Below, one piece after another: positions 2,036-30,409 of a stretch of DNA of 64,000 nt; positions within the stretch are counted from its first letter, which is position 1; every line of letters starts with the position of its first letter. Source of the DNA: Candidatus Dormiibacterota bacterium (GTDB lineage: Bacteria; Chloroflexota; Dormibacteria; Aeolococcales; Bog-877); contig DATLRN010000010.1 in NCBI GenBank assembly GCA_035534695.1, positions 21,333-85,332 of the forward strand. The letters run 5' to 3'. The translations under genes and the position numbers were made by a program. The notes under the pieces are model-generated. The model made no database searches, was not told the DNA's origin, and saw only the letters and a program-made list of their open reading frames with translations.

Positions 2036-3126
2036 TCCCGCAACTGACCGTCGGCAGTCTGGCCGTGGCCGTCACCGGTCTCGTCGCCGTGCAGATCCTC
2101 AACCTTGGTCCGCTCCTTCCACAGATCGCTCTGACCGGCGGAGTGGGCGCTCTCGTCGCGGCGGCCCTAGCCGTGGGCCTAAGGAGACCACGACTGGTTT
2201 CCGTGGCTGGAGTTGGGCTTGTGCTCGCGTATGCGCTTGCTGTCGTGCAAAGGCCGGACTCTTCCGTCGCAGCCGCCTCAGCACCTGTCATTGCGGGCGG
2301 AATCTTCCTCAGCACTCAGTTGGGCTGGTGGGCGACAGAGCTACGTACAACAGCTCGAGAATCCGCGGTGGACCTCACCCGCCGGGGGGCTCAGCTCGGA
2401 GCCAGCGCGGTAGCCATCGGAGTTATCGCTGAAGTCATCTGGCAGGCCGGGCGTATTCATTTAGGTCAGGGTCTGCAGTTCATGCTCCTCGGTCTCTTGG
2501 CGGCCATCGGACTTGTAGCTCTATTTTTGGGTGTAGTCACTCGTCGGCGCTATGCGAGGAATCAGCTCCTGAGTGACCAACCCGCCCTTCAACCGCGTTC
2601 TGCTGATGGGCATTCCGGCCTCGTTTCAACCCCGAAGCGATTCGGCAGGCTCGTTGCTCCAGCCGACGCCACATCATCACGAGTCGCGCACAATCGAGTC
2701 GCCTTACGGACAATGATTGCAGCGATTCTGCTCCTGACGGATGCCGCAGTCACCGCGGTGGACCTTCACTACTCGGGAGCGAAGAATGCCGCTCCCGGCA
2801 TCGCCCTTGGGCTCATCGTGGCCGGAGCAATAGTTTTGGCTTGGCTGGGACTGAGTCTGGGAGCACTCGTGCGACCTGTTGCCGATTTAGAGGAGCGCCC
2901 ACTCACCCACAAGCCACCGCCGCCCGCCGATCTTGGCAGCCTGGGTGTGATTAGATCACTGACTCGGCGCGCTTGGAGGACGGGACGGTGCGACGCCGAA
3001 TTCGGCACGTACCTGGTATCGCTTGGCGACCGACTGGCAGGCGAACATGAGATGGAGACGGTCCCACGATCAGTAGCCGACATCGGGGCTCTGCTAGCAG
3101 ACTTGGAGCGCGCGGCCGATGCTTGA
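2017..3126 (+). CDS. polytopic membrane protein, unknown function
   Basis: An in-frame ATG at 2017 sits just before the DUF58 stop. There are many hydrophobic segments (LAVAVTGLVAVQIL, VGLVLAYALAVV, LLGLLAAIGLVALFLGVV). GC3 is high. Confidence 0.55.
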   Translation: MARPGLIPQLTVGSLAVAVTGLVAVQILNLGPLLPQIALTGGVGALVAAALAVGLRRPRLVSVAGVGLVLAYALAVVQRPDSSVAAASAPVIAGGIFLSTQLGWWATELRTTARESAVDLTRRGAQLGASAVAIGVIAEVIWQAGRIHLGQGLQFMLLGLLAAIGLVALFLGVVTRRRYARNQLLSDQPALQPRSADGHSGLVSTPKRFGRLVAPADATSSRVAHNRVALRTMIAAILLLTDAAVTAVDLHYSGAKNAAPGIALGLIVAGAIVLAWLGLSLGALVRPVADLEERPLTHKPPPPADLGSLGVIRSLTRRAWRTGRCDAEFGTYLVSLGDRLAGEHEMETVPRSVADIGALLADLERAADA

Positions 3127-3799
3127 CTCACCCCGGTGGGCAGCGCGATCGATATTCTCGGTCATCGTACTGAGTCTGGTTGCGGGTTCTCTAGTTGCCC
3201 TTGTGGTGACCATGAGCACTTCGCGAGTCGGGACAATCAAGTTGCCGGAGAATAGCCTCGCCCGCTCCGTCGGCATCGGCCCAGGGCATCCAGGGGGTTT
3301 CTTGACCCCAGCGTGTCACGCGGCGAATGCGCGATGCCGGCGAGATATCGGCTCCGCCCGGGCGTCGGGCACCTCGGTACCATCGTGGGAACTCGCGATC
3401 GCCGGCTTGCTTGCTGCTGGCGCGGCCGGCGTCCTCTTGAAGACGCGGCGCACACAGCTGAGTGACCCCAGCCAAGTCAGCTCCAGTCTTGAATCATCGC
3501 CCAGGACTCGGCGAACGCCGGGCAACCCGAGGGAGATGGTGCTGGCGGCCTTCGCCGATGTCGAGGAACGCCTCACGAGCCGCGGGATTGCTAGAGAGAC
3601 ATGGGAGGCTCCGGAAAACTACCTGGCGCGGGCTGTACCGGGCAACACCCGCGCCGGATCCCCAGCTGGCAAATTGGCCCGACTTTATGCCCTGGCGCGT
3701 TATTCCCGGCATCCGATCGACAGGTCTTCGGCCACACAGGCCGAGGAGGCAGCGGCGGAGTTGAGCGACCACTTCGATCCGCCCTCCGAGGTTACATAA
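3119..3799 (+). CDS. membrane-anchored DUF4129-like protein, copy 1
   Basis: An N-terminal TM segment and a second TM (WELAIAGLLAAGAAGVLL). The C-terminal block REMVLAAFADVEERLTSRGIARETWEAPENY...LARLYALARYSRHP resembles DUF4129, which is found with MoxR/DUF58/transglutaminase loci. Confidence 0.65.
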   Translation: MLDSPRWAARSIFSVIVLSLVAGSLVALVVTMSTSRVGTIKLPENSLARSVGIGPGHPGGFLTPACHAANARCRRDIGSARASGTSVPSWELAIAGLLAAGAAGVLLKTRRTQLSDPSQVSSSLESSPRTRRTPGNPREMVLAAFADVEERLTSRGIARETWEAPENYLARAVPGNTRAGSPAGKLARLYALARYSRHPIDRSSATQAEEAAAELSDHFDPPSEVT

Positions 3800-3878
3800 A
3801 AGGTGCGCCGACTTACTGAGGCCGAGGAACCCAGCGTCGACCTAGCGCCTCTGCTGGACGCCGTCGAGCGGATCCAGG

Positions 3879-4550
3879 ATGAGTAATCCTCGCACACGTC
3901 TCGGGCAGTCGATGCCCTGGCTCATCGTGCTAAGTCTGGTCGCGACTTCTCTAGTTACCCTTGTTGTGATCATGAGCACTTCCCGAATCGGGACGATCAG
4001 GTTGCCCGAGCATAGACATACCGTCGTCCACATCCGCAAGAGGTCCCCAGGCGACGGCCACCTACCTTGTGACGCGGTCGGTGCCCAATGCCGTCGTGCT
4101 GTCACTCCATCCCGGGGCAGGAGCACTCCGGTGCCGCAGTGGGAACTCGCGCTCGCCGGCTTGCTTGCTGCAGGCGCGGTCGGCGTCCTCTGGAAGACGC
4201 GCCGCACACAGCTGAGTGACGCCAGCGACGCCGGCACCAGTCCTGAGTCATCGCCCAAGGCTCGCCGAACGCCGGCTAACCCCAGGGAGATCGTGCTGGC
4301 GGCCTTTGCCGATATCGAAGAACGCCTCACGAGCCGCGGGATTGCTAGCGAGACTTGGGAGGCACCGGAGAGCTACCCGGGTAGGGCGATACCGGACAGC
4401 GGACACTCCAGTCGCGCTGCTCACACACTGGCGCGCTTGTACGCACTGGCGCGCTACTCACATCACTCCATTGACACGGTCGCTGCGACCCAGGCTCTTG
4501 CTGCGTCGACTGAGCTGGCCTCCAGGTTGAGCACAGGCTCTAGCGTCTGA
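3879..4550 (+). CDS. membrane-anchored DUF4129-like protein, copy 2 (paralog of 3119..3799)
   Basis: It has the same architecture and long blocks identical to copy 1 (KTRRTQLSD, VLAAFAD.EERLTSRGIA.ETWEAPE, LARLYALARYS). Confidence 0.65.
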   Translation: MSNPRTRLGQSMPWLIVLSLVATSLVTLVVIMSTSRIGTIRLPEHRHTVVHIRKRSPGDGHLPCDAVGAQCRRAVTPSRGRSTPVPQWELALAGLLAAGAVGVLWKTRRTQLSDASDAGTSPESSPKARRTPANPREIVLAAFADIEERLTSRGIASETWEAPESYPGRAIPDSGHSSRAAHTLARLYALARYSHHSIDTVAATQALAASTELASRLSTGSSV

Positions 4551-4697: not shown

Positions 4698-5132
4698 ATG
4701 ACGGCTAGGGACAAAGTAACGAACCACCCCGGCTGGGGCTTGGCAGTGCTTGCAGGGCTGATGATGGTGCTGACGGGCTGTTCCGCTGCCTCTCCGCTAC
4801 CCGGACGGGATGGCCAAGTGGTGGGCGGAATCGCCGCCTGCACTGGTGCCCGGGAACTGCATCGCCCGGGGTTCGTCGCAGGCACGGTGCGCGTGTTGCG
4901 AGGTACTGTCTCTGAGACGCCGACACAGGCCAACGGCGATACCACGGTGCTGCCCACGGATCAGGTAGCATCGGCTCACGTAGCCAAGCTCCAGAAGTAC
5001 CGTTTTACCTTGAAACCAGGGCGATATGTGCTCGTGGCCCACTACGCAAGGTCGAACATTGTGTCTTGGGTGGCAGTCCTCATCCGGACTGGCAAGGTGA
5101 CCAACCAGAGTATCCCCACCCCATGTATTTAG
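4698..5132 (+). CDS. putative lipoprotein
   Basis: From ATG 4698 the signal peptide reads MTARDKVTNHPGWGLAVLAGLMMVLTGCSAAS, which contains a lipobox (LTGC). No family was recognised. Confidence 0.5.
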   Translation: MTARDKVTNHPGWGLAVLAGLMMVLTGCSAASPLPGRDGQVVGGIAACTGARELHRPGFVAGTVRVLRGTVSETPTQANGDTTVLPTDQVASAHVAKLQKYRFTLKPGRYVLVAHYARSNIVSWVAVLIRTGKVTNQSIPTPCI

Positions 5133-5187
5133 CAGCGTTGGCATGTGCGGCGAGAAGTACTCGCGGTCAGCATTGTCGACCCTGGCC

Positions 5188-6288
5188 TCAGCTACCGGCG
5201 CCGTCTGCGGTAGCGAGCTCCAAGTAGGCTGCCCGTTCTTGCTCACTCAACGGGGAGCTTCCGGCGGCGAGAACCCTGACGCGCAGGAAGAGGTCTCCCC
5301 CTGCTGCTGCCGCCTTGAGGGCGGGGATGCCCTTGCCCGCCACGCGCAGCGTTCTTCCCGGTGGACAGTTCTCGGGAATCGTCAACTCCAGTTTTCCCGC
5401 CGGCCCGGTGGTCACGACTTTGCCCCCCAGGGCGGCGCGGTAATCACGCACCGGTAAGTCCTGATAAACATTGCGGCCCTTGACCTCAGTACCGGTCGGC
5501 AGCTTGAGCCGGACCTTGAGGTAGAGATCGCCGCGCTTGCCGTCGCCCACTCCGCTGGCGCCCTCGCCGGCCACGCGGATCCTCGAGCCCTCGGTCACCC
5601 CCTTGGGGATCGTCACCTTGAGATTCCGTCGTCGGTACTGACGGCCGGAGCCGGAGCAAGCCGGACAGGCCTTGACCCCGACCTTGGTCGCGGTTCCGCC
5701 GCCACCGCTGGCTTCAGTCACCCGGCCGCTGCCGCCACAGGCGGGGCAGCTCTCGACGATGGAGACCTGCATGGTCCGGTCCCCGCCCTGCATGGCCTCG
5801 GCGAGGCTCACCTCGAGTTGGTCTTCGCTGTCGGCCCCCTTCTTGGCGGCGAGGTTCTCCCGCCGGAGTTGCTCCATCTGGGCTTCAATCCAGGGATCGT
5901 TGGGGTCGCTACCGCGGCCGCTAAAGAAGGTCTCGAAGAAGTCGCTGAACCCGCCGAATCGGGCCCCGGCTCGATCCGCCGCCCGCTGGGCGGTCTCCCG
6001 AGCACGAGTTCCGGCGTCGGCGAAGGGCTGACCGTGCTCGCGACGGAAGGCCTCGGCCCTTTCGATCTGCTCCCAGTCCGACCCCAAGCGATCGTATTTG
6101 GAGCGTTTCTCGGGGTCCTTGAGAACCTCGTAGGCCTCGTTGACGCGCTTGAATCGCTCCGTTGCCTTGGGATCCTTGTTGACGTCGGGATGAAGCTCCC
6201 GGGCCAGCTTGCGATAGCGGGCACGGACTTCCTTGTCCGTGGCCGTCCGGGGAACGCCTAGCGTTGCGTAGTAGTCGCGGAACTCCAC
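5188..6288 (-). CDS. J-domain chaperone (DnaJ/CbpA-like)
   Basis: The N-terminus DYYATLGVPRTATDKEVRARYRKLARELHPDVNK contains the HPD motif. Only two CxxCxGxG motifs are present (CPACGGSG, CPACSGSG), followed by DnaJ C-terminal beta-domains. Confidence 0.85.
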   Translation of the reverse strand: MEFRDYYATLGVPRTATDKEVRARYRKLARELHPDVNKDPKATERFKRVNEAYEVLKDPEKRSKYDRLGSDWEQIERAEAFRREHGQPFADAGTRARETAQRAADRAGARFGGFSDFFETFFSGRGSDPNDPWIEAQMEQLRRENLAAKKGADSEDQLEVSLAEAMQGGDRTMQVSIVESCPACGGSGRVTEASGGGGTATKVGVKACPACSGSGRQYRRRNLKVTIPKGVTEGSRIRVAGEGASGVGDGKRGDLYLKVRLKLPTGTEVKGRNVYQDLPVRDYRAALGGKVVTTGPAGKLELTIPENCPPGRTLRVAGKGIPALKAAAAGGDLFLRVRVLAAGSSPLSEQERAAYLELATADGAGS

Positions 6289-6315
6289 AGCTTCAAGGTA
6301 CCGTCTCGGCCCCGC

Positions 6316-7575
6316 TCACGAAACGCTTGTTTCCGGGCCAGGCTCCTCTAGCTGGGATCGGAGCTCGACGATGGCGGCCGCGAGATGGGGCAGGAGGGAG
6401 CTATCGGGAGCGCAACACGTTCCCTCGAATAGAAGGCGGGCCAACTCCTTCCCCGGTCGGGACGTGGACTGGATGACTAGTCCAACCTCACCCGGGGATG
6501 GTCCCCCCAAACCCATCTCCCCAGTGGCGTGGAAATGCCCGTCCTGGGTCAGAGTTCCCCGAGAGGTCGCCGGAGCTGGGTCGGAGCGCCGTTCGCCCAG
6601 TTGATAGAGGATGACCTGGGACCAGCGGCACTCCAAGGTCTGGCTGCTGATCTCTCCGATTCCGAAGCTGGCCAGGTGCTCATCTAGAAGGCCCGGGCCG
6701 CCGCTGTCGCGGGCGGTGAGGCTGAAGAGAGGCACCGATGCCACCAGCCTGGGGTTGATCTCGATGCACCAGATCCTTCCCTCGGTGCCCACCACCAGGT
6801 CCAAGCCAAAGATCCCTCGGTGGCCCAGCCTCTGGAGCCAGTGCGCGGCCTTGAAAGCCAGTTCCTGCACACGTGAGGTTTGAGGCACCGGCTGGCCGTA
6901 GTCGTTGCCGCAGGAACCCAGCGGATGAGGAGTCAGGGTATCGATGCCAGTCAGTTGCAGGCACGCCGGACCGACCACCAGGCTGTCCTCTTTAACAACC
7001 CCGGTCACGGTCACCGGAACCCCCAGGACTCGCTCGGCGATCCGGCAGGTTCGCCCGGCAAACTGCCGGAGGAGAAGGGCGAGCTGGTCTTCAGTCTCGG
7101 CCAGATAGGTCTGTTCGCCGGAGAAGCCTCGCGCCAGTTGAAAGATGACGGGCAGCTTCAGATCACCGGCAGCGGACTGTAGGTCGGCACCCGCGACACC
7201 TGTCTTGGTGGCTGGGATGGGTAGCTCCGCGGCGGGGGCACTGCGGCTGAAGTAGCTCTTGTTCTCGATCCGACGCGCGATCAAGGCGGGCGAGTTGGCC
7301 ACGATGACACCGACTTCTTGGGCCACTTGCTCCACTTGAGCCGAGCTCTTCCACACCACGATGGGGTCCGGTTGCTGGCGCAGAAGGCCCTGAACTCTGG
7401 GATCGGCGAGGAGTGCCGCTGCCGAGGCAGGACCGGGTACTTGAACCCGGGCCCAACCAGGCCTCCCATCGCGGGCAAGCCCGCAATCCTCGGCACAGAT
7501 GGCTCTGAGCCCGGCTGCTAGAACGGGCAGGGGATCGGGACCTATAAAGGTGACGCCTGCATTGCTGGACTTCAT
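6316..7575 (-). CDS. ATP-grasp family ligase, unknown substrate
   Basis: The C-terminal core HRGIFGLDLVVGTEGRIWCIEINPRL is typical of an ATP-grasp fold. The start overlaps the upstream PLP gene stop (ATGA at 7572-7575). Confidence 0.7.
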   Translation of the reverse strand: MKSSNAGVTFIGPDPLPVLAAGLRAICAEDCGLARDGRPGWARVQVPGPASAAALLADPRVQGLLRQQPDPIVVWKSSAQVEQVAQEVGVIVANSPALIARRIENKSYFSRSAPAAELPIPATKTGVAGADLQSAAGDLKLPVIFQLARGFSGEQTYLAETEDQLALLLRQFAGRTCRIAERVLGVPVTVTGVVKEDSLVVGPACLQLTGIDTLTPHPLGSCGNDYGQPVPQTSRVQELAFKAAHWLQRLGHRGIFGLDLVVGTEGRIWCIEINPRLVASVPLFSLTARDSGGPGLLDEHLASFGIGEISSQTLECRWSQVILYQLGERRSDPAPATSRGTLTQDGHFHATGEMGLGGPSPGEVGLVIQSTSRPGKELARLLFEGTCCAPDSSLLPHLAAAIVELRSQLEEPGPETSVS

Positions 7576-8660
7576 GGCGAGCCCGGTTTGGTGAAGGCGG
7601 CCCCTTCGAGAAGGCGATCAAGCTCCTCCTCCGTGTTGGCCGTCGGGAGTGGAGGATCGCCGGAGTGCTGCCTCGGTTCTTGATCGAGTTGCGACTCGTC
7701 TCCAGTCAGCACCGCCACCCACCGGCCCTCCGCCACTGGCGGGGCCGAGGCGGCCGCTTGCCTCATCGCCGCCAGGGTGGCCAGACCTTCCCAGGATGTC
7801 CGCACGCCGTGGCGGGCGGCTACCTCCCGAACTTCTTCAGCTTCTCTGGCGCCGACACGCCAACCCCGCCCGCCGCTGCGGCGAACCTCCCGTCGCAGAG
7901 CCGGCGCCCGCCGCGAGCGGTGGGTGCCGAGCTCACCCGGGAGCGACTCCTCCCGCAGTTGCTGGTGACTCGAGGGGTACCAGGGCCGGGTCAGCTCTCC
8001 GCCGGGCGCGCCCTCCACCACGTGCAGCGCCGGGCGCTGCCCCGGGGCCAGCAGCTGCTCCATGCCCTGGGCGATACCCAGGGCGCAGGCCCCACTGCTG
8101 GAGAAGACGAAGACTGCCGCCAGAGGCTCTTCCTGGACCAGCTCCGCCGCTATCCCCCGGTAGGCGTTGGGGGCGAGCAGGTTGACGGAGCCACGCAGGT
8201 CGGAGAGGCCCCAGTCGCGTACGCCATGGTGCAGAAGACCGACCGGACGGTCGCTGAGTACGGTCAGTTGCTGATAGATCTCAAGCCGTTGCAGCTTGAG
8301 CCGAGGCGTCCGTGGTGAGACCAGGCTCAACATCCGGAGGCCAGCCAAGGAGGCGTATGCCGCCGCCGCGATGGCGGCGTTGCCGGAAGAGGAGATGACC
8401 GCCTGACGGCCACCTGAAGCGAGCAGGACGGAGCAGAGCAAGCTCAGAGAACGCGCCTTGTGCGAGCCCGTTGGGGAGAGGTCTTCGCGCTTGAGCATCA
8501 GGTTGGGAATGCCGAGCTCGGATCCCAGCTCGGCAGCTGCCGCCAACGGCGTCATGCCCTCTCCGAGTGAGAGCTGAGATGCGGCCGGTAGACTGACGCC
8601 GAAGAGTCGGGCGTGGATCCACTGCCCCTGGGGGCCGTCAGCCCCTTCAGCGCCAGGCAT
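7572..8660 (-). CDS. PLP-dependent fold-type II enzyme (threonine synthase / cysteine synthase-like)
   Basis: LMLKREDLSPTGSHKARS carries the PLP lysine motif, and ISSSGNAA is the glycine-rich phosphate loop region. The layout is threonine-synthase-like. Confidence 0.75.
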   Translation of the reverse strand: MPGAEGADGPQGQWIHARLFGVSLPAASQLSLGEGMTPLAAAAELGSELGIPNLMLKREDLSPTGSHKARSLSLLCSVLLASGGRQAVISSSGNAAIAAAAYASLAGLRMLSLVSPRTPRLKLQRLEIYQQLTVLSDRPVGLLHHGVRDWGLSDLRGSVNLLAPNAYRGIAAELVQEEPLAAVFVFSSSGACALGIAQGMEQLLAPGQRPALHVVEGAPGGELTRPWYPSSHQQLREESLPGELGTHRSRRAPALRREVRRSGGRGWRVGAREAEEVREVAARHGVRTSWEGLATLAAMRQAAASAPPVAEGRWVAVLTGDESQLDQEPRQHSGDPPLPTANTEEELDRLLEGAAFTKPGSP

Positions 8661-8675
8661 TAATGGAGGTCTCGC

Positions 8676-8849
8676 GTGAGCACGATCGGCGCCGTCGCCA
8701 AGAACTGCCCCGACTGCGGGACGGCCCTCGACCTCGCCGACGTGGCGGAGATCGGCGACCTCGTCGACTGTCCCAATTGCGGAGCCACCTTCGAACTGGT
8801 CGGACTCAACCCCCTCACTCTGGCCCCATTCGAGGACGAGGAGAAGTAG
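8676..8849 (+). CDS. LysW-like zinc-ribbon amino-group carrier protein paralog (57 aa, not in ORF track)
   Basis: GTG 8676 is preceded by GGAGG (8665-8669). The translation is VSTIGAVAKNCPDCGTALDLADVAEIGDLVDCPNCGATFELVGLNPLTLAPFEDEEK. The CPxC-17 aa-CxxC spacing is identical to the canonical LysW at 59690, and an acidic tail is present. 50 of 57 codons end in G/C. Confidence 0.7.
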   Translation: MSTIGAVAKNCPDCGTALDLADVAEIGDLVDCPNCGATFELVGLNPLTLAPFEDEEK

Positions 8850-10368
8850 CAGCCCTTACCGCCTGCCGGAAACCACCCTGGCGGTAATGGGCGGTGAAGA
8901 AGCCAGGGCAGGCGGGAGAGAGAAGGATCGTGTCTCCCGGCTGGGCCAGCTCGGTGGCAAGGCTGACCGCCTCTTGCAGCGTTCCCAGCCGACTCACCAG
9001 GTCCTCGTGGCCGGCAGTGCTCACCTCCTGAGCCAGCCGGTCAGAGCCTTTCCCGGGAAGCAGCAGCAGCCGCCCCACACTCGCGCCGACCATCTTTGAG
9101 AGCTCACTGAAGTCAATGCCCTTGTCCTCGCCGCCGGCGATCAGGATGCAAGGTCGCCCCAGCCCCATAACTGCCGCCACCGTGGACTGAGGTGTGGTGC
9201 TGGAGAGGTCGTCGACGTAGTCGACACCTCGGTGCTGACGCACCAGCTCAGTGCGATGGCGAAGCGGCCGAAAGCTCTCGACGGCCTGGGCCGCCTTGGC
9301 CAGCTGGTCCGGCTCCAGAGGGGCGAGCACGGCCAGCACCGTGAGCGCCGCCCGCACATTACTCAGATTGTGCCGACCCACCAAGGGGACGCTCGCGGCG
9401 GCCATGACTGCGTGCGAGGTTCCCTGCCAGCGCAGTCGGAGCAGGCCCTCCTCCTCGAAGGCGCCATCCAGACCTGCAAGCTGTTCCAGTCCCCGGGCGA
9501 AGCGCAACTGACGAACCTCTGGACGGAGATCGCCACCGGCCAGACTTTGAGGATCGTCGCCGTTGCGGATCGCCACCTCGCAACCAGGGAGTTCAAAGAT
9601 TCGCCGCTTGGCAGCGACGTAGCCGGCCAGACCCTGGTGCTCGTCGAGGTGATTGGGGGTGATGTTGGTCAGGCAGCCTACCCGGGGAGCTCGCTCCATC
9701 TGGAGCAGCTGGCGGTTGCTGATCTCCAGGACCAGACAGCCCGTGCCATCGTCGCCGGCCACCTCGACCAGGGCCTGGCGGTCGTGCCGGTCGTTGCCGG
9801 CCAGCCAAACCTTGGGGTAGAGACCGCTCTGAGCCACCAGCGCCGCGACCAGGGAGCTGGTCGTCGACTTGCCATGGGTTCCGGTCACCCCCACCACCTC
9901 GCCCCGGGCGAGGTCAAGGTACGCCTGGATCAAGGAGTAAAACGGGTGGCCCCGCTCCTTCAACTGCTGCAGTGGGGCATTGGCCGCAGCCAGGAACCAG
10001 GCCTGGGTGGGGATGATCAGGGCCGAGGTCTCTATTCCCTTGAGGTAGTCGCCCCCCAGCTGCAGTGAGCGCAGTCCGGTGAGCAGTTCCTCAAGACGCT
10101 GGTGGCGCGCATCACGGTCCATCCCAGCGTGGGCCAGGTGGTGGGAGCGGCGCAGGCTCTCCAGGTCCGGCTGCTGGTCGTGGCCGACCAGATTGGTGAA
10201 GCCGGATGCCAGGAGATACCGGGCCATCTCACCGCCCTCGACGCTGGCGACCCCCACCAGGTCGATGCGGCTTTGGCCAAGCTCGGCTAGTCGGGCGGGC
10301 ACCCGAAGTGCGGCATGACCAGACGGCCCAGGGGAGGTAGCCGCCGCGGCAGGGGCCGGGATCTCCAT
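8815..10368 (-). CDS. Mur ligase family protein, MurD-like paralog
   Basis: It has the P-loop GVTGTHGKSTT, the MurD-like GGEDKGIDF, and the C-terminal ILLSPACPGFFTAHYRQGGF. ATG 10368 is chosen because the longer track ORF would overlap the upstream NlpC/P60 gene. Confidence 0.8.
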   Translation of the reverse strand: MEIPAPAAAATSPGPSGHAALRVPARLAELGQSRIDLVGVASVEGGEMARYLLASGFTNLVGHDQQPDLESLRRSHHLAHAGMDRDARHQRLEELLTGLRSLQLGGDYLKGIETSALIIPTQAWFLAAANAPLQQLKERGHPFYSLIQAYLDLARGEVVGVTGTHGKSTTSSLVAALVAQSGLYPKVWLAGNDRHDRQALVEVAGDDGTGCLVLEISNRQLLQMERAPRVGCLTNITPNHLDEHQGLAGYVAAKRRIFELPGCEVAIRNGDDPQSLAGGDLRPEVRQLRFARGLEQLAGLDGAFEEEGLLRLRWQGTSHAVMAAASVPLVGRHNLSNVRAALTVLAVLAPLEPDQLAKAAQAVESFRPLRHRTELVRQHRGVDYVDDLSSTTPQSTVAAVMGLGRPCILIAGGEDKGIDFSELSKMVGASVGRLLLLPGKGSDRLAQEVSTAGHEDLVSRLGTLQEAVSLATELAQPGDTILLSPACPGFFTAHYRQGGFRQAVRAATSPRPRMGPE

Positions 10369-10378
10369 CCGAGCTAGG

Positions 10379-11260
10379 TTAGCGGGGGGGAGCGATTGCT
10401 CCCGGCACCCGGCGAACGGTGAGCACCTGATAGCGCTGGCGGAAGTCGTTGAGGGGTTCGCGACGCACCTCGTTGCACTCGCTGCAGGCATGAACCACAT
10501 CGTCATCGGCTAGATAGAGGGCGACGTGGCTGGTCCGTTTCGGACCGCGGTGGACGGCGCAGATCAGATCTGCCTCACGCAACCCGGCGATCTGCACCCG
10601 CTCCCCGATCTTTCGCTGGGCCCGGCTGTTGCGGGGCAGGAGCACCCCGGCCTTGAGGTAGGCGCGCCAGCTGAGGCCGGAGCAGTCGATCCCCTGGCCC
10701 CCGGTGCCGCCGAAGACGTAGGGGCGCCCAAGCAGGTCGAGCGCTGCCTGCCGCACCACCTGCGGGTCCCAACCGGAGGCGGGCACGTTGGCCGCCCCGG
10801 CCACTCCCTCCGCAATAGCTGGTCCCCAGCGGTAGGGCGAGCCGGGGCGCACCCAGCCTACCGCCTCCCCGGGGGCCCTGACCAGGTAATGGCCCTGCCG
10901 GACGGCGAGCAGCCCGGCGGCGGGGTCTCCCGGGAGCAGCTGGGTGGTGAGCTCCTGTCTCTCCGAGGTCTCATCGGGATGGCGCCGCCAGATGTCCAGC
11001 GTTCCCCCTGCGGGATAGAGGGCGACACGGGTGCGCCGGGTGGCCAGTACCAGGAGTCGGCAGTTGGCTCCCGGCCAGAGTTCGGTCACCCGTCGGCGCA
11101 ACTCCAGTGCCTGGGCCGGCAGTGCCACCGTGCCCCGGATCCCATCAACGGTCAACCGGACTTCAATCAGGGCCTCGCCATAGCGAGCCGTTGCCTGGCG
11201 GCGAAGACCATCAAGGGCGTCTTCCAGCGCCACCGAGAGCGCGCCCGGGGCAGAGTTCAA
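10379..11260 (-). CDS. NlpC/P60 (C40) cysteine peptidase, no signal peptide
   Basis: GRPYVFGGTGGQGIDCSGLSWRAY...SHVALYL provides the catalytic Cys/His core. A TTG start at 11260 overlaps the upstream stop (TTGA). An alternative GTG lies at 11290. The N-terminus is not hydrophobic. Confidence 0.8.
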   Translation of the reverse strand: MNSAPGALSVALEDALDGLRRQATARYGEALIEVRLTVDGIRGTVALPAQALELRRRVTELWPGANCRLLVLATRRTRVALYPAGGTLDIWRRHPDETSERQELTTQLLPGDPAAGLLAVRQGHYLVRAPGEAVGWVRPGSPYRWGPAIAEGVAGAANVPASGWDPQVVRQAALDLLGRPYVFGGTGGQGIDCSGLSWRAYLKAGVLLPRNSRAQRKIGERVQIAGLREADLICAVHRGPKRTSHVALYLADDDVVHACSECNEVRREPLNDFRQRYQVLTVRRVPGAIAPPR

Positions 11261-12135
11261 CGTTCGGCCTGCCCAAAGAGTCGCCACCACCCGGTACGGT
11301 GCACCTCACCTTTGAGCTGAGCTGGATGGAGTTGTAGAGATTGGCCATCAGTGCTGAGCAAAATTGGGCTCAAAGGGAAGCTCGCCAGCCGGTAAAGTCG
11401 GCGTACCAACTCGGTCATCTTGTCGTGGCTGGCGGCGTCGCCAATGCCAGCCACCACCATGGCCCGGTCCGGTGCCGCCAGGGCGGCACGGCCGTCGCCC
11501 AGCTCGGCGAGCCTCTCCAAGAAGGCGGGCACCAGCAGAAGGCTGCTTGCAAAGAGGATGTCGTCGGTGAAGAGCCAGGTTCTCTGCTCCGGTTCCTTCT
11601 TCAGGACCGTGCTCCAGCGGGTCAAGCGGAGGGCGGTGTTGCGATCGGCGAGTTCCACCAGGTTCTCCTCCGCGAGACCGCCCATCTCCGCCTCGGCGCG
11701 GGAAACTCCGCGCATGGCATCTCCGGGCAGCGCCTCGGCGACAAACGCCAGCAGGCCTCCGGGGAGCTCTCGGGTGGCGAGCTCGGCATAGCGACTGAAT
11801 CGGCGAATGCTGCGCCCAGCGCGGACGCACCAGACCAAGGCGCCCGGATCCGGAGTCGGAGTGGAGAGCTCAGGACGGTCCTCGGCAGCGCTCAGCCGGG
11901 GCGCGGCCGCGCTGACGAAATGCGAGATGCGCTCCGGCATTGACACCTCAGGCCGGCTCGCTTCCGCGAAGAGCGACTCCAAAGAGAGCGCTACCTGGGC
12001 TCGATCCTTGTGGGCCAGGACCCCAAAATCGTCGTCGCGGGCACTGAAATCCCACCCTCGGTAGCGAGCCCGAAACTGGGTTAGGAGTCGCTCCTGGAAC
12101 AGTCGGCGCTCGCTGTCCAAGCGTATTGTCGGCAT
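11257..12135 (-). CDS. hypothetical protein
   Basis: The ORF is 292 aa with high GC3, and it is tightly packed between the vWA and NlpC/P60 genes. No family was recognised. Confidence 0.6.
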   Translation of the reverse strand: MPTIRLDSERRLFQERLLTQFRARYRGWDFSARDDDFGVLAHKDRAQVALSLESLFAEASRPEVSMPERISHFVSAAAPRLSAAEDRPELSTPTPDPGALVWCVRAGRSIRRFSRYAELATRELPGGLLAFVAEALPGDAMRGVSRAEAEMGGLAEENLVELADRNTALRLTRWSTVLKKEPEQRTWLFTDDILFASSLLLVPAFLERLAELGDGRAALAAPDRAMVVAGIGDAASHDKMTELVRRLYRLASFPLSPILLSTDGQSLQLHPAQLKGEVHRTGWWRLFGQAER

Positions 12136-12139
12136 CGGT

Positions 12140-14128
12140 CTAGTTTGACCGCGAGCGCGAGGCTACGTAGTCCACTAGCACGTAGTCGCCGAGCCGGTCG
12201 GGGCTGACGAAGAAGACGCGACCTCGGTTCTGGCGAGTGAGTTGCTGGATGAACTGGACCAGGTATTGGTTGGTCTCGAGCATGAAGGTGTTAATTACAA
12301 TTCCCTCCCTGGTGCAGTGACGCACCTCCTGAAGGGTCTTGCGGAATGTCTCGGGTAAGGGCGGATACATGAAGACGGCATGGGTGCCTTCCATGTGGGC
12401 TGTGGGCTCGCCATCGCTGACGATGATTATCTGGCGATTCCCGGCCCGATGGCGATGCAGCAGACGGCGCGCCAGCATCAGTCCGTGCTGCATGTTGGTG
12501 CCGTAGACGTACTCGCTGTAGGAGAGTTGGGCCAGCATGGCCGGACTGATTTCCCGGGCGTAGTCGGAAAATCCGACGACGTACAGAGTGTCCCGGGGAT
12601 ACTGGGTGCGGATCAATGAATTCAGCGCCAATGCCATTTTCTTGGCGGCGTAGAAGTATCCCCGAAGCGGCATGCTGCGGCTCATGTCGAGCATCAGCAC
12701 GGTGTTGGTCTGCACGCTGCGCTCGGATTCCCGCACCTCGAAGTCGTCGACGTGTAGGCGAAGCGGCCGGCTTCCGTCGCTGTGGCGGACTGCGTTCATG
12801 AGGGTCTTTTCTACGTCCAGGTTGAAGGGATCCCCGAACTGGTAGGGCTTGCTGTCATCACCGACCTCGGGGCCGGTCCCCAGGCTGCCCTGGGGATGAC
12901 TGCCGAAGCCATCCGCAGAGAGGTGCTGGAAGATGTCCGCCAGCGCCTTCTGGCCGATCTTGCGCACTCCCTGCGGGGTCAGCTCCAGCCCCTCGCCATT
13001 GCGCCGGAGCTGTCCTTTCGCCTCCAGTTCTCTGACCAGGGCCTGGATCTTGAGCAGATTGGCGGCCGAGTCCGGTCCCAGACTCTCCGCCATCTGCTCC
13101 AGCAGCTCCGGGGGTACATCGGCGCCGGTGTACGCCTGGCGGAGGCCCCTCTCCAGAGAATCGAGCTGTTGCAGTTCGCCCATCACGTCGAGGGCGCCTG
13201 GGAGATCGAGTTCCTCGCCGCCGAAGAAGGGAAAACGCGAACCGGAAGATGCCTGAGGGGACATCTGGCCGAGCAGGCGTGAGAGCCGGGCCAGCTGGTC
13301 TTGGAGTTCTTCGTCGCTGAGGGCGGCGCGCATGATCTCCTGAAGCTGCTCGCGCATTTCCGGCGACGCTGATTCCAGCAGTGAGTCGAGCTCGGCCATC
13401 TGCTGGCGCAGCTGGTCTAAAAAGGAATCCAGATCCTCGGGATGGTCGGGGAAGTAGCTGCCCCACTTCTCCATGAACTCCTCGTATCGAGGTGGTTCGC
13501 CCCGCTGCTGCCGCTCCAGCATCTGGTTGAGGTCGCGGATCATTTCGCGCAGCTGTCCGATGTCCTGCGTCCCCAGGTTCTGGACCGCCCTACCGAGGTC
13601 CTGGAAGTGACGCTCGACGAGGTTGCGGCGGAGCTCGCCCAGCAGCTCCTGAAAGTCCCGACCCGCCTCCTGGTCGAGGAACTCGTACTCCTGGAGCTGG
13701 CGGATGGCGGAACCCGCCTCCGGGGGCAGGGCGTCGAGCTGCTCCAGGCGGCTCCGGGTCAGTTTCTCCAGCAAGCGCTGGTGATCGCTGCCAGCCGCCT
13801 CGCGGGCGCGCTCCTGGAGGGTGGTGCGCTCCTTTTGGAGAATCCGGTCGAGCCGCTCCTCGATGTCCTTGAAGAGGCCATCCAGGTTGTAGCGCTCAAG
13901 CTTCTCTTGGCGCTGCTCGCGGACCTGGTCGAGGAGGTCTTCCAGGCCTCGTAGCTGGTTCCCTTGGCTGTCCCTGAAGCCCTGGCTCAGGAGGCGACGG
14001 AGGGCGGACTCGAAGTCCCAGCCGTGGAAGACATCCTCCGCCAGGCGCGAGAAGAGTTCCCCCGAGTCAGGAAGGTCACCCTCCTGACTGCCGTCCCAAC
14101 GGCTGTACAGCTGACGGGCCGCGGCCAT
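12140..14128 (-). CDS. von Willebrand factor A (vWA) domain protein with long acidic/coiled N-terminal region
   Basis: The C-terminal vWA domain has a MIDAS motif, VLMLDMSRSM...VVGFSDYA...IIIVSDGEPTAH. The N-terminal 400 aa are rich in E/L/Q repeats. Confidence 0.8.
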   Translation of the reverse strand: MAAARQLYSRWDGSQEGDLPDSGELFSRLAEDVFHGWDFESALRRLLSQGFRDSQGNQLRGLEDLLDQVREQRQEKLERYNLDGLFKDIEERLDRILQKERTTLQERAREAAGSDHQRLLEKLTRSRLEQLDALPPEAGSAIRQLQEYEFLDQEAGRDFQELLGELRRNLVERHFQDLGRAVQNLGTQDIGQLREMIRDLNQMLERQQRGEPPRYEEFMEKWGSYFPDHPEDLDSFLDQLRQQMAELDSLLESASPEMREQLQEIMRAALSDEELQDQLARLSRLLGQMSPQASSGSRFPFFGGEELDLPGALDVMGELQQLDSLERGLRQAYTGADVPPELLEQMAESLGPDSAANLLKIQALVRELEAKGQLRRNGEGLELTPQGVRKIGQKALADIFQHLSADGFGSHPQGSLGTGPEVGDDSKPYQFGDPFNLDVEKTLMNAVRHSDGSRPLRLHVDDFEVRESERSVQTNTVLMLDMSRSMPLRGYFYAAKKMALALNSLIRTQYPRDTLYVVGFSDYAREISPAMLAQLSYSEYVYGTNMQHGLMLARRLLHRHRAGNRQIIIVSDGEPTAHMEGTHAVFMYPPLPETFRKTLQEVRHCTREGIVINTFMLETNQYLVQFIQQLTRQNRGRVFFVSPDRLGDYVLVDYVASRSRSN

Positions 14129-14138
14129 TGCCGCTCGC

Positions 14139-15533
14139 CTAGCTTCCGTAGACGGTGGTGCCGTCCACCACTGTCTTGTTGAGGCGCTTGGAGAGGTGCA
14201 ATCCCTCCAGCACCAGTTCCAAGGCAGCTGCCACCGACCCAGGCTGCTGGGGCTCGTCGAGGTCGCTCAGGATCCGCTTCATCTCGGGGATGCCATCGGC
14301 CACCTGGAGGTAACGCTCGAGCGGCACCATCTCGCCGACTTCGATGGTTAGCCCTTCCTCGAAGCGGGCCAGCACCGGGGCGAACTCTTGCACCGCGAAG
14401 TGGCGGCGGAAGACGTTGGTGCAGGCGCTCCGCAGCAGCTTCTGGAGCAGGGCCTGATCCTCACCCTCCTCCCAGGTCTCCAGTTCCAGCTTGCCCAGGG
14501 TCGAGGCGGTGAGCGCGCCGAGGTCGCTCAGCCGGGGCACGGCCTCGGGCTCGGAGAGACTTATCGCCCGGCGAACCGCGTTGGCGCAGAGGCTCTCGAA
14601 ATTGGCGATCGAGAGCCTGACCGAGACTCCGGAACGTTGGTTGATCTGGGTAGTACGCCGGGCCAGTTGGGAAATCTCGGCGACCAGCTCCAGCATGTAT
14701 TGGGGCACGTGGAGGGGAATGCCCAGGCCCGAGAACTGATCACGTTCCTGTTCAACGATTTCGGCCTCCGCCTCCGGGGAACGCGGATAGTGGGTCCGGA
14801 TCTGGGCTCCGAAGCGGTCCTTGAGCGGGGTGATGATCCGACCCCGGTTGGTGTAGTCCTCCGGGTTGGCCGTGGCCACCACCAGCACGTCGAGCGGCAG
14901 ACGAACCTGGAAGCCGCGAATCTGGACGTCGCGCTCTTCCATGATGTTGAGTAATCCCACCTGAATCCGCTCGGCCAGGTCGGGAAGTTCGTTGATGGCA
15001 AAGATGCCCCGGTTGACCCGGGGCAGCAGGCCGTAGTGGATGGTCAGCTCGTCGGCCAGATAACGTCCTTCGGCCACCCGAATCGGGTCCACCTCGCCGA
15101 TCAGGTCGGCGATGGACGTGTCGGGGGTGGCCAGCTTTTCGCCGAAGCGCTCCTCCCGGCCGATCCAAGTTATCGGCGTTTGGTCTCCCAGCTCGGCGAC
15201 CAGGTCGCGACCGAGGCGGCTGATCGGCGCATAGGGATGGTCGTGCACCTCACTCCCACTAATCATCGGCACCGCTTCGTCCAGGAGTTGGGCCATGGCC
15301 CGGATCAGCCGCGACTTGGCCTGGCCCCGTTCCCCGAGGAAGACCATGTCCTGCCCAGCCAGCAGAGCATTCTCGATCTGGGGCAGCACCGTGTCCTGGT
15401 ACCCGACCAGACCCTGGAACCGCTCCCGGCCGTGGCGCAATGCCTCGATCAGGTTGTCCCGCAGCTCCTCCCGGACCGAGCGCATCCGGTACTCGCTGCC
15501 CCGAAGCTCACCAAGGGTGCTGGGGAGTGCCAT
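14139..15533 (-). CDS. AAA+ ATPase, Mg-chelatase ChlI/BchI-like
   Basis: It has the Walker A-like VFLGERGQAKSRL, the Walker B/sensor region GIFAINELPDL, and LLNIMEERDVQIRG...VLVVATANPEDY. It lies 10 bp upstream of its vWA partner. Confidence 0.8.
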   Translation of the reverse strand: MALPSTLGELRGSEYRMRSVREELRDNLIEALRHGRERFQGLVGYQDTVLPQIENALLAGQDMVFLGERGQAKSRLIRAMAQLLDEAVPMISGSEVHDHPYAPISRLGRDLVAELGDQTPITWIGREERFGEKLATPDTSIADLIGEVDPIRVAEGRYLADELTIHYGLLPRVNRGIFAINELPDLAERIQVGLLNIMEERDVQIRGFQVRLPLDVLVVATANPEDYTNRGRIITPLKDRFGAQIRTHYPRSPEAEAEIVEQERDQFSGLGIPLHVPQYMLELVAEISQLARRTTQINQRSGVSVRLSIANFESLCANAVRRAISLSEPEAVPRLSDLGALTASTLGKLELETWEEGEDQALLQKLLRSACTNVFRRHFAVQEFAPVLARFEEGLTIEVGEMVPLERYLQVADGIPEMKRILSDLDEPQQPGSVAAALELVLEGLHLSKRLNKTVVDGTTVYGS

Positions 15534-15677
15534 TCAGTCCCTAGCACCCCGACCACCAGGGCGCACCATTTGCCCACTATAGTCAGGGCCTCCAGAGCGA
15601 GCCGGAAGTGAGAGCGAGCTCCGGCCCGGGTCCCTGCCCCCTCTCCCCGGAGCCCCGATCCTCCAAGCTAGGAAGCT

Positions 15678-16478
15678 ATGGACAGCAACCCTTCCGAGCC
15701 GGCTGCGAGCGGTGCCAGCGGCTATGGCCAGCACCGCCAGTCCGCCGCCGGCCAGGCGGGCTACACGGTCCGATTCGGCTGGGGCCTGCCTGGAGTCGCG
15801 GCTCTGGCCCCGCATTCGGATGTGCTGGTGGTGGTCGATGTGATCACCTTCTCCACCGCGGTGGCGGTGGCGATGGAGCGTGGTTGCCGTATATACCCTC
15901 ACCCCTGGGACCCCGAGACCGCCCGGGCCCGGGGTCTTGAGCTGGGGATCCCGGTGGCGGTGAGTCGCTCAGCGGTATCCCCCGAGCATCCCTATTCCCT
16001 CTCCCCGGCGACTCTCAGCCGAGCCCCTACCGGAACCTCGATCGTGCTGCCCTCGCCCAACGGGTCGGCTCTCTCGGCAGCCGCCGGTCAGTACCCGGCT
16101 CAGGTTCTCGTCGGCTCTTTGCGCAATGCATTCGCGGTTGCCCGCTTCGCCCGCCAGCAGGGCAAGGTGATCTCGGTCATTGCCGCCGGTGAGCGCTGGG
16201 CCGACGGATCCCTGGACCTGGCACTGGAGGACATGATCGGGGCCGGAGCGATCATCGACGGCCTGCGTCGACGGCGGCGTTCGCCCGAGGCGACGGCCGC
16301 CGCGGTGGTCTACCGGCAGGCGCGAAAACAGGGCTTGCGGGCAACTCTGCGAGAGTGCGTTTCGGGGCGCGAGATGCGCCGCCGAGAATATGGTGATGAG
16401 CTGGAGTGGGCGGCTGCGCTCAACGTAACAACGTTCGTCCCGGTACTCCACAATGGTGCCTTCCAGGGAGTCGGCTGA
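15678..16478 (+). CDS. 2-phosphosulfolactate phosphatase (ComB) family protein
   Basis: VLVVVDVITFSTAVAVAMERG, together with the length and overall layout, resembles the ComB family. The call is weak because it rests on recognition only. Confidence 0.5.
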   Translation: MDSNPSEPAASGASGYGQHRQSAAGQAGYTVRFGWGLPGVAALAPHSDVLVVVDVITFSTAVAVAMERGCRIYPHPWDPETARARGLELGIPVAVSRSAVSPEHPYSLSPATLSRAPTGTSIVLPSPNGSALSAAAGQYPAQVLVGSLRNAFAVARFARQQGKVISVIAAGERWADGSLDLALEDMIGAGAIIDGLRRRRRSPEATAAAVVYRQARKQGLRATLRECVSGREMRRREYGDELEWAAALNVTTFVPVLHNGAFQGVG

Positions 16479-29196: not shown

Positions 29197-29201
29197 ACCC
29201 G

Positions 29202-29211
29202 CCCCCCCCCC
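29202..29211 (-). repeat. G10 homopolymer (C10 on + strand) at positions -15 to -6 of the pcaI start codon
   Basis: Read directly from the sequence: ...gcaagc GGGGGGGGGG c ggg t ATG on the minus strand. Confidence 0.9.
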
Positions 29212-29615: not shown

Positions 29616-29632
29616 CTGTGCGCATGACGTAC
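29616..29632 (+). promoter_or_regulatory. candidate operator-like motif CTGTGCGCATnnCGTAC (copy 1)
   Basis: 15 of 17 positions are identical to a site at 38845-38861 (minus strand) upstream of the ABC binding-protein gene. Both copies lie in the intergenic regions of the IclR-linked aromatic island. Confidence 0.3.
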
Positions 29633-30256: not shown

Positions 30257-30409
30257 TCTAAAGGTGGTCACAGGCCCAGCGCTGGATCTTTGCCCGTTCA
30301 GTTGGTGAACGGTCGACGGGCTCAAGCCACGTCCGGTGCGCCCGCGAGTTAACCGGCACGCGACGGCCGCGGTCACCTGGGGCGAAGCGGAAGCGTCAGA
30401 GGGCCGGAG

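Follow-up and report, generated by a model that had tools for sequence, protein, structure and literature searches.

In the LysW and ArgW systems and their amino-group carrier protein (AmCP) relatives, a small acidic zinc-ribbon protein is loaded at its C-terminal tail by an ATP-dependent ligase, further enzymes modify the load, and a hydrolase releases the product. The CysO-CysM-Mec system provides cysteine in Mycobacterium tuberculosis, its pyridoxal phosphate (PLP) enzyme acting with the C-terminus of the carrier, and in Enterococcus faecium the D-aspartate ligase Aslfm, partnered by the aspartate racemase Racfm, ligates onto the epsilon-amine of the Lys that follows gamma-D-Glu. MetM, a threonine-synthase-like enzyme, works with the C-terminus of the carrier MetO and with the hydrolase Mec (as cited in a GapMind preprint of 2026), and in Xanthomonas and Micromonospora MurD2 and MurL form an alternative ATP-dependent route in which the D-Glu of peptidoglycan is made after attachment and not by a free racemase (PMC8788868). 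Here we describe a locus at positions 5188-15533 of a 64,000-nucleotide stretch of Candidatus Dormiibacterota DNA (NCBI GenBank assembly GCA_035534695.1, contig DATLRN010000010.1, positions 21,333 to 85,332 of the forward strand; hereafter the window, from whose first letter unqualified coordinates are counted), in which a LysW-like carrier with a Lys-ending tail stands among genes for a MurD paralogue, an NlpC/P60 peptidase, a fold-type II PLP enzyme and an ATP-grasp ligase. This combination appears to be undescribed: we did not find it in the literature on the component names and on LysW/amino-group carrier proteins, a body that does not take in the 2009 amidoligase survey. We place the finding among the carrier-protein pathways, with a fair chance that it is a new route in peptidoglycan precursor metabolism.

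Compared with LysW and ArgW, the locus appears to keep the plan of a ligase that loads the tail, enzymes that modify and a hydrolase that releases, and its carrier is a small acidic zinc ribbon of the same Pfam family. The tail and the enzymes differ. LysW ends in EDWGE, the gamma-carboxyl of its terminal Glu carrying the substrate amine, whereas the carrier described here ends in EEK; the ligases are a Mur ligase and a biotin-carboxylase-like ATP-grasp enzyme, the hydrolase is NlpC/P60, and a fold-type II PLP enzyme is added. Neither the window nor the related loci have lysX (RimK-type), the kinase lysZ, the reductase lysY, the transaminase lysJ or the M20 hydrolase lysK within 10 kb. With CysO-CysM-Mec and with MetO-MetM-Mec, which serves homocysteine in Streptomyces, the locus shares a small carrier, a fold-type II PLP enzyme and an amino-acid-freeing hydrolase. 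Those systems use a ubiquitin-fold carrier, a Gly-Gly thiocarboxylate, an E1-like adenylase and a JAMM metalloprotease; in their place stand a zinc ribbon ending in Lys, ligases of acyl-phosphate-forming type and a cysteine peptidase, with no sulfur-transfer genes, and neither ThiF/MoeZ nor JAB domains were seen among the neighbours. An earlier note on this DNA, made from the letters alone, had drawn the analogy to CysO/CysM/Mec, an apt one now that threonine-synthase-like MetM has been described with MetO and Mec (as cited in the same preprint).

A five-part module conserved across bacteria

The real unit at this locus is a set of five parts: a LysW-like carrier with an EEK tail, a MurD paralogue, an NlpC/P60 peptidase, a PLP enzyme and an ATP-grasp ligase. 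They are laid out in the window as follows (aa, amino acids; ORF, open reading frame).

6316-7575, minus strand: ATP-grasp ligase of an apparently new family, 419 aa; core
7572-8660, minus strand: fold-type II PLP enzyme, threonine-synthase-like, 362 aa; core
8676-8849, plus strand: LysW-like zinc-ribbon carrier, 57 aa, tail ...PFEDEEK; core
8815-10368, minus strand: MurD paralogue, 517 aa by the gene caller (the longest ORF reaches 10506); core
10379-11233, minus strand: NlpC/P60 cysteine peptidase, 284 aa; core

All five products are small and soluble-looking. The window is GC-rich (~65%) and matches metagenome contigs that have Candidatus Dormibacterota MAGs (metagenome-assembled genomes) as their nearest named relatives. 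The LysW-like gene stands alone on the plus strand among eight co-directional minus-strand genes, four of which are neighbours treated below. Intergenic gaps inside both minus-strand groups run from -4 to 27 nt, the ATP-grasp and PLP genes overlapping by 4 nt in ORF coordinates. The carrier gene has a GTG start with a GGAGG ribosome-binding site six nucleotides upstream; 15 nt separate its start codon from that of the PLP gene, and 35 nt at its 3' end (8815-8849) are shared, tail to tail, with the Mur ligase gene, as in the related locus L011 (8803-8837; collected loci bear L numbers) and in other Dormibacterota loci. Because the ...TSPRPR... of the ligase C-terminus is antisense of the carrier FEDEEK codons, the conserved ligase C-terminus in Dormibacterota may be a by-product of this overlap. 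The positions that the earlier note had given for nine genes agree with the ORF and gene calls, and all of its domain calls are upheld by Pfam and NCBIfam. An Rfam scan of the whole window gave no match and hence no riboswitch clue, a promoter and terminator scan of 4800-16200 stayed at chance level, the PADLOC defence-system models matched none of the eight proteins, and a Pfam sample of ten large window ORFs held aromatic-catabolism and transporter genes and no division and cell wall (dcw) or lysine genes.

The five-part core was found in at least eight phylum-level lineages and in at least four gene orders across phyla, with syntenic loci in Dormibacterota, Chloroflexota, Thermoleophilia/Gaiellales, proteobacterial-labelled MAGs, Planctomycetota, CSSED10-310 and Patescibacteria. 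As far down as 44% identity, almost every homologue of the ATP-grasp protein comes from Dormibacterota, followed by a gap to 39% or less; L011, at 44%, has the nine genes of the window in the same order. Neighbours were counted within 7 kb of the ATP-grasp gene in the 48 species-level genome loci that have an ATP-grasp relative and enough upstream sequence: a LysW-like gene is present in 42 of the 48, a Mur ligase gene in 42, a PLP gene in 41 and an NlpC/P60 gene in 38, several of the apparent misses being ORF-assignment artefacts or fused or split forms. The deepest core consists of LysW, PLP and ATP-grasp. Besides the Dormibacterota arrangement, the gene orders are the following.

Type B (L013, L020-L027, L105): LysW - NlpC/P60 - Mur ligase - PLP - ATP-grasp, a single co-directional operon
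Type C (Anaerolineae, Caldilineae, Thermoleophilia): 929-aa NlpC/P60 + Mur ligase fusion - LysW - PLP - ATP-grasp
Type D (L079, L081, L082, L087, L104): LysW - NlpC/P60 - Mur ligase - PLP - ATP-grasp
Other types (L101, L106, L107): further orders of the same five genes

Three loci (L033, L050, L065) have the ATP-grasp gene without the other parts nearby. A chance juxtaposition of the five genes was rejected on the co-occurrence counts, the several gene orders and the fusion of NlpC/P60 with the Mur ligase. The earlier note had proposed a carrier-centred set of amide ligases, PLP enzyme and peptidase, and this proposal is borne out by the fused 929-aa protein and by the synteny of the five genes in distant lineages, where they co-occur far more than by chance.

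A LysW-like carrier with an invariant C-terminal lysine

The carrier matches Pfam PF21344 (Zn_ribbon_LysW) over residues 10-51 (E=5e-13) and scores 47.1 bits against TIGR01206, under its cut-off of 53.2. An alignment of 20 carrier sequences shows four invariant Cys residues, which can also be seen in the 60 collected orthologues. All 60 distinct orthologues end in Lys, following the pattern [F/W/Y/L]-x-[D/E]-E-E-K, with the endings DEEK in 32, EEEK in 25, LEEK in 2 and EDEK in 1. Judged by these matches, the carrier has the LysW fold and is missing the tail that defines LysW. The invariance of the terminal Lys suggests that either its epsilon-amine or its alpha-carboxylate takes part in a covalent bond, and a Lys in the place of LysW's Glu implies a new attachment chemistry. 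The earlier note had overlooked this residue, which sets the carrier apart from LysW.

A survey of 1.84 billion representative proteins gave 88 short LysW-like cluster representatives among the best 150 matches; 27 of these 88 are of the EEK type, 16 end in Glu, among them the canonical EDWGE type, whose members form a separate group, and the remaining 45 include many with other acidic tails. When metagenomes were scanned by the carrier tail pattern, all four confirmed loci held the module, and every new LysW-EEK gene from the DNA pattern search was located inside it. In Dormibacterota, Shapirobacteria, L100 and L101, the carrier gene sits between the genes for the Mur ligase and the PLP enzyme and is encoded on the other strand; in types B, C and D and in L106 it is co-directional.

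Many of the short LysW-like proteins end in a long poly-acidic tail of neither the EEK nor the EDWGE type, and there are large proteins with 4-10 tandem LysW-like zinc ribbons (P0329, 807 aa; P0334, 1287 aa; P0331; P0338; P0381; P0440). The LysW fold family is far more varied than its two characterised uses.

A MurD paralogue with a remodelled acceptor site

The MurD paralogue matches the Pfam domains Mur_ligase_M (2.4e-24) and Mur_ligase_C (2.5e-10) and has the P-loop GTHGKST. It aligns with canonical MurD over the full length in hhalign (probability 100, 33% identity) and scores 205.8 bits against TIGR01087 murD, under the cut-off of 211.95, in a match that begins at model position 76. The MurD-type N-domain PF21799 matched none of the orthologues, whereas canonical MurDs in the same search have it, and NCBI names the orthologues 'Mur ligase family protein'. 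Wherever the context of MurD-like relatives without PF21799 was looked up, they lay inside the module.

Alignment of the family to E. coli MurD separates the two substrate sites. The D-Glu-binding residues of the E. coli enzyme, which we take from the MurD structural literature to be T321, K348, S415 and F422, have kept equivalents in S-T-T-P, in G-G-x-D-K (K416 invariant) and in S484-P-A-C-P-G-F-F, although this last loop (S484 to F) is two residues shorter than in E. coli MurD. UDP-MurNAc-L-Ala is bound in E. coli MurD by the Gly-rich loop, Asp35-Thr36-Arg37, Ser71-Gly73, the Asn138 region and Ser159-Gln162. At this site the Gly-rich loop has changed from GLGxSG to G-a-S-v-E-G, the Asp35-Thr36-Arg37 region to H-D-x-x-P, SPG (Ser71-Gly73) to t-Q-a-W-F, GNIGxP to GNDRHxxQ (a two-residue insert at G-N-D-R-H) and SSFQ to SNRQ; the paralogue also gains a 16-aa insert and invariant Arg residues. 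Listed separately from this alignment, the invariants of the family are N192, R194, S217-N218-R219, K416 and S484. On this reading of the alignment, the MurD paralogue most likely still adds Glu, although its acceptor would be something else than plain UDP-MurNAc-L-Ala or would involve the acidic tail of the carrier as well, and the module would offer a natural case in which a Mur ligase has shifted from a nucleotide-sugar to a different acceptor.

The module resembles MurD and MurD2/MurL in having a full-length MurD homologue with a conserved Glu pocket and, in one Candidate Phyla Radiation (CPR) dcw cluster, the murD position; it differs in the remodelled UDP-MurNAc-Ala site, in a score below the murD cut-off and in the addition of a protein carrier, a PLP enzyme, an ATP-grasp ligase and a peptidase. 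No MurL is apparent among the annotated module neighbours, among which no search for MurL homologues was made. We rejected the identification of the MurD-like gene as the housekeeping murD: its acceptor site is remodelled and, wherever its context was looked up, it is never in dcw context and always in the module. It was not seen in the dcw position between mraY and ftsW, and the window and the Dormibacterota loci contain no dcw genes.

The Mur ligase and NlpC/P60 genes contain long ORFs in antisense, 264-278 aa in size (for example 9232-10068 and 10526-11320, both plus strand). They are typical high-GC artefacts, uncalled by the gene caller.

ATP-grasp ligase, PLP enzyme and peptidase

The ATP-grasp protein matches Pfam ATP-grasp_3 weakly (E=1.5e-6) and has no sequence relative in PDB better than E=0.05. 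The folds nearest to its AlphaFold2 model (predicted local distance difference test, pLDDT, 93.6) are those of PurD, PurK and biotin carboxylase, at a template modelling (TM) score of ~0.6 and a Foldseek probability of 1.0. K106, C222-G-N, E272-x-N274-x-R276 and H300 are invariant in the family, and the Mg/ATP residues of ATP-grasp enzymes (Lys, E-x-N) are accordingly present as K106, E272 and N274. A LysX/RimK-type loader was rejected, since neither fold nor sequence is RimK-type (23 bits against rimK_fam, cut-off 143). As far as the model allows it to be placed, the protein forms a new family without a close characterised relative.

The PLP enzyme matches Pfam PALP (E=3.5e-35), and its profile matches PDB 6cgq (3e-35). 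For its AlphaFold2 model (pLDDT 92), the best PDB folds are threonine synthases (TM 0.75-0.78, 20-22% identity), and the Schiff-base Lys68 (in SHK) and the SSSGN loop are invariant in the family. It nevertheless falls below every NCBIfam thrC cut-off (36 bits against 167 for TIGR00260), and the threonine-synthase phosphate loop N-S-x-N-P-x-R aligns as R-x-S-x-N-x-x-A; the Arg of that motif is lost, and another Arg, R156, is nearly invariant (at least 90% of sequences). The module would in this way define a new threonine-synthase-like family as well as a new ATP-grasp family.

The peptidase matches Pfam NLPC_P60 (E=5.7e-19) and has the catalytic Cys (GIDCSGL, a DCSG motif) and the His motifs SHVALYL and VVHA. 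Its N-terminal domain of ~160 aa is family-specific and common to types A, B and C (hhalign probability 98-99.9). The sequence has no hydrophobic N-terminal segment, and a cytoplasmic location is plausible.

In the tubulin EEY tail cycle, the ligase is an ATP-grasp enzyme, tubulin tyrosine ligase, and the peptidase is the papain-like vasohibin. The module has a formal likeness to that cycle in its acidic EE-X tail, ATP-grasp ligase and papain-fold peptidase, and one could imagine a reversible modification of a small regulatory protein, the peptidase trimming the terminal residue and the ligase restoring it with no metabolite involved. Such a cycle leaves the PLP enzyme, a member of the deepest core, without a function, and likewise a second ligase with a Glu pocket; we regard it as very improbable.

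Cell-wall and D-glutamate contexts

Outside Dormibacterota, parts of the module stand beside cell-wall genes. The order in L075 (Candidatus Shapirobacteria) is ftsI-murE-(204 aa)-murC-murA-mraY-[module genes]-ftsW-murG-..-ftsA, where the bracket stands for a weak NlpC/P60-like gene, LysW-EEK on the other strand, PLP and ATP-grasp, with no MurD-like gene. The module here occupies the usual murD position of the dcw cluster. This placement had been overlooked by the earlier note. In four further CPR loci, L015 (201-1616), L016 (214-1629), L059 (52-1533) and L084 (5584-7047), the ATP-grasp gene is alone directly upstream of ftsW(-murG-murC-murB), with no LysW or PLP gene nearby. The hosts are Parcubacteria, Moranbacteria and GCA_041643395.1/GCA_041643235.1, and the proteins, of 470-490 aa, score 137-152 bits against NCBIfam PRK06524 'biotin carboxylase', far under its cut-off.

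Other contexts involve peptidoglycan turnover and D-glutamate. Immediately upstream of the module in all eight type B loci, and co-directional with it, are genes for a NagZ beta-N-acetylhexosaminidase equivalog (291 bits, cut-off 207) and a methylmalonyl-CoA-epimerase-like vicinal oxygen chelate (VOC) protein (146 bits, cut-off 115); the two genes lie at 4972-6467 in L013 and in the same place in L020, L021, L023, L024, L026, L027 and L105. In four of the five type D loci (L079, L081, L087 and L104; not L082), the peptidase carries a fused D-glutamate-cyclase-like domain, PF14336, which is the DUF4392 half of mammalian D-glutamate cyclase (PMC5339696). L100 (JGI 3300025094, Ga0209478_1000051; same organism as L103) has at 7319-12857 the order D-Glu_cyclase (PF07286) - GLUCM-like_C (PF14336) - NlpC/P60 - MurD-like - [LysW-EEK, other strand] - PLP, flanked by a divergent oligopeptide ABC transporter upstream and penicillin-binding protein (PBP)/FtsW-RodA/FHA genes downstream, with no ATP-grasp gene within 10 kb. 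The NlpC/P60 protein of L039 carries the SH3 domain of YkfC-type dipeptidyl-peptidases. The earlier note had allowed that its carrier-centred reading would fall if the MurD-like and NlpC/P60 proteins acted on peptidoglycan material alone; the contexts do point to peptidoglycan, through the carrier and not instead of it.

These same contexts can be read as recycling or salvage, with NlpC/P60 cutting imported or turned-over stem peptides at gamma-D-Glu and the MurD paralogue capturing D-Glu on the carrier for conversion to L-Glu or 5-oxoproline or for re-use. NagZ directly upstream in every type B locus, the oligopeptide transporter and both D-glutamate cyclase halves of L100, the YkfC-type SH3 domain of L039 and the D-Glu pocket kept by the ligase would all suit such a function. 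It accords poorly with the biosynthetic murD slot in the CPR dcw cluster and with the pairing of ATP-grasp and ftsW, two ATP-consuming ligases would be costly for degrading one residue, and D-Glu, once a Mur ligase has N-acylated it, can no longer serve as substrate for PLP chemistry. On balance we find recycling unlikely.

A tentative pathway on the carrier

We tentatively propose that the module processes glutamate while it is bound covalently to the carrier tail, for use at position 2 of the peptidoglycan stem peptide, which is D-Glu, a reading that we hold to be a real possibility and stop short of calling probable. Starting from what the comparisons show (the conserved module, the invariant EEK tail, the split pattern of the MurD paralogue and the cell-wall contexts), we infer for it a substrate, an attachment point, an order of steps and a direction. 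First, the ATP-grasp enzyme would join the gamma-carboxyl of L-Glu to the epsilon-amine of the carrier's terminal Lys, and the carrier would thus hold a carboxyl group, as the mirror image of LysW. Second, the PLP enzyme, which needs a free alpha-amino acid head, would invert or otherwise convert the tethered residue, most simply by epimerisation. Third, the MurD paralogue would use its conserved D-Glu pocket to couple the alpha-amine of the residue to a carboxylate. Fourth, NlpC/P60 would free the product and regenerate the carrier.

In ATP-grasp enzymes of the PurD, PurK and biotin carboxylase type, a small carboxylate is activated and transferred to an amine on a larger substrate, and gamma-D-glutamyl bonds are the typical target of NlpC/P60 peptidases. 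Once a Mur ligase has acylated the incoming amino acid at its alpha-amine, the residue is unusable for a PLP enzyme; the PLP step would therefore come first, or take place on a gamma-tethered or free residue. In the proposed order every part would have the chemistry typical of its family. The apparent replacement of ATP-grasp by D-glutamate cyclase in L100 would fit the scheme because both act on the gamma-carboxyl of Glu. A further lead, from general knowledge only, is the likeness to Aslfm/Racfm and Alr/Ddl, in which a racemase-type enzyme and an ATP-grasp ligase feed a D-amino acid into peptidoglycan; the EEK tail resembles the Aslfm acceptor. The difference is that the module acceptor would be a protein tail and that the module ATP-grasp has no close characterised relative.

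Should the connection to peptidoglycan be borne out, one step of a bacterial pathway that ranks among the best studied, the supply of D-glutamate to the stem peptide or its ligation there, would differ in large, mostly uncultured lineages, including reduced CPR genomes. A bolder version, which we consider doubtful, is that LysW-EEK as a carboxyl carrier, on-carrier epimerisation by the PLP enzyme and a stereospecific hand-on by the MurD paralogue and a gamma-D-glutamyl-specific NlpC/P60 together form a third, ATP-driven route to peptidoglycan D-Glu. In Dormibacterota, many Chloroflexota, Patescibacteria and further uncultured lineages this route would take the place of MurI, and of MurD too in some CPR bacteria.

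Several points weigh against the proposal that glutamate is processed on the carrier for the stem peptide. All of the evidence is comparative and all hosts are uncultured. The remodelling of the UDP-MurNAc-Ala site suggests that UDP-MurNAc-L-Ala may not be the acyl donor; the acidic carrier tail could itself play the acceptor, with the steps then running in another order, and the remodelled site equally allows a scheme in which Glu is loaded onto the carrier's own alpha-carboxylate. The presence of NagZ and of the peptide transporter suggests recycling more than synthesis, and no dcw genes were seen near the module in the window's own phylum. In Gaiellales/Thermoleophilia MAGs, unrelated genes separate ATP-grasp from LysW-PLP; in L076 (211-1381 and 9752-11170), as also in L072, a gap of ~8 kb holds a citrate synthase, an SNF2 helicase and a BNR-repeat protein. 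Finally, the PLP enzyme is nearest to threonine synthases and not to known racemases, and by analogy with CysM and MetM a beta- or gamma-replacement with the carrier as nucleophile would be equally compatible with it.

This last point bears on a different product, an unrelated small molecule (a non-proteinogenic amino acid, a dipeptide or a cofactor) made on an amino-group carrier in the style of LysW/AmCP or of CysO-CysM-Mec and MetO-MetM-Mec. The MurD paralogue would then load Glu on the alpha-carboxylate of the Lys, or the epsilon-amine of the Lys would attack a PLP-bound aminoacrylate or vinylglycine; ATP-grasp would extend or activate the intermediate, and NlpC/P60 would release the product. 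The invariant basic residues gained at the acceptor site of the MurD paralogue suit an acidic tail, the PLP enzyme is threonine-synthase-like, as is MetM, and the contexts in Dormibacterota, L013, L101 and L106 are without dcw genes. However, the module comes without the reductase, kinase, transaminase, oxygenase and export genes usual in AmCP clusters, its vertical conservation across a whole phylum and its retention in tiny CPR genomes fit housekeeping better than secondary metabolism, and the dcw, NagZ and D-Glu-cyclase contexts would be left unexplained. We judge this product unlikely. Even a module unrelated to the cell wall would amount to a widespread pathway whose parts current annotation mislabels as MurD, threonine synthase and 'hypothetical'.

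Neighbours restricted to Dormibacterota

Four further genes complete the locus in the window.

5188-6288, minus strand: DnaJ paralogue, 366 aa, with J domain, partial zinc finger and C-terminal domain; Dormibacterota-only neighbour, not core
11257-12135, minus strand: orphan protein, 292 aa; possible lineage-specific accessory
12140-14128, minus strand: vWA (von Willebrand factor type A) protein, Rv0959-like, 662 aa; Dormibacterota-only conserved neighbour, not core
14139-15533, minus strand: AAA+ ATPase, ChlI/MoxR-like, partner of the vWA protein, 464 aa; Dormibacterota-only conserved neighbour, not core

The AAA+ protein matches Pfam AAA_5 and, weakly, BchI-ChlI (43.7 bits). The vWA protein matches Pfam VWA_2 and has precomputed Pfam matches to Mb0984_helical and Rv0959_3rd, the Rv0959 family being named after a Mycobacterium tuberculosis protein. 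The DnaJ paralogue has the Pfam domains DnaJ and DnaJ_C and reaches 250 bits against TIGR02349, whose cut-off is 377. The 292-aa orphan is always directly upstream of NlpC/P60 in Dormibacterota, with rigid spacing in all loci. It has no relative in Pfam, NCBIfam, PDB or PADLOC, even with a 12-sequence profile, and hhalign finds it unrelated to the D-glutamate-cyclase-like domain and to the N-terminal domain of NlpC/P60.

That all nine genes form one system, the ATPase and chaperone for example assembling or remodelling an enzyme-carrier complex, is suggested by their identical order in ~25 Dormibacterota species, down to 44% ATP-grasp identity, and by the very short gaps in the window. Spacing in Dormibacterota is indeed rigid from the 292-aa gene through NlpC/P60, Mur ligase and PLP to ATP-grasp. 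The junction between the vWA and 292-aa genes, however, is interrupted in 4 of ~27 Dormibacterota loci, by inserts of 0.2-4.2 kb, and that between ATP-grasp and DnaJ in ~12 of 37, often by an opposite-strand PP2C gene; the vWA protein, moreover, belongs to the Rv0959 family. The AAA+, vWA, 292-aa and DnaJ genes occur in none of the core loci outside Dormibacterota (types B, C, D and CPR), so that every other lineage has the five-part core without them. Because of this absence and of the insertions at both junctions, we treat the AAA+/vWA pair, the 292-aa orphan and the DnaJ paralogue as neighbours and not as parts of the mechanism, and consider a nine-gene system improbable. The earlier note had counted the AAA+/vWA pair and the J-domain protein as partners, a view that does not survive these comparisons.

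The PP2C-type phosphatase insert between ATP-grasp and DnaJ marks one Dormibacterota subclade. It is found on the opposite strand in L011 (11139-11852, minus strand), L012, L043, L049 and L053, and further in L055, L058, L060, L066 and L070.

Divergent from the AAA+ gene at 15678-16478 (plus strand) is a gene of the 2-phosphosulfolactate phosphatase (ComB-like) family, which keeps this position in ~20 Dormibacterota loci. A second AAA+ system, unrelated to the core, lies on the plus strand at ~1-4550 (L001 986-5875) and comprises a MoxR-type AAA+ gene, a DUF58 gene, a gene for a 369-aa protein and two DUF4129 genes. An aromatic-catabolism-like cluster at 24799-33999, unrelated to the module, encodes a protocatechuate 3,4-dioxygenase beta subunit, a Lyase_1/ADSL_C cycloisomerase-like enzyme, an FAD monooxygenase and an aldehyde dehydrogenase, and is followed by branched-chain-type ABC transporter genes.

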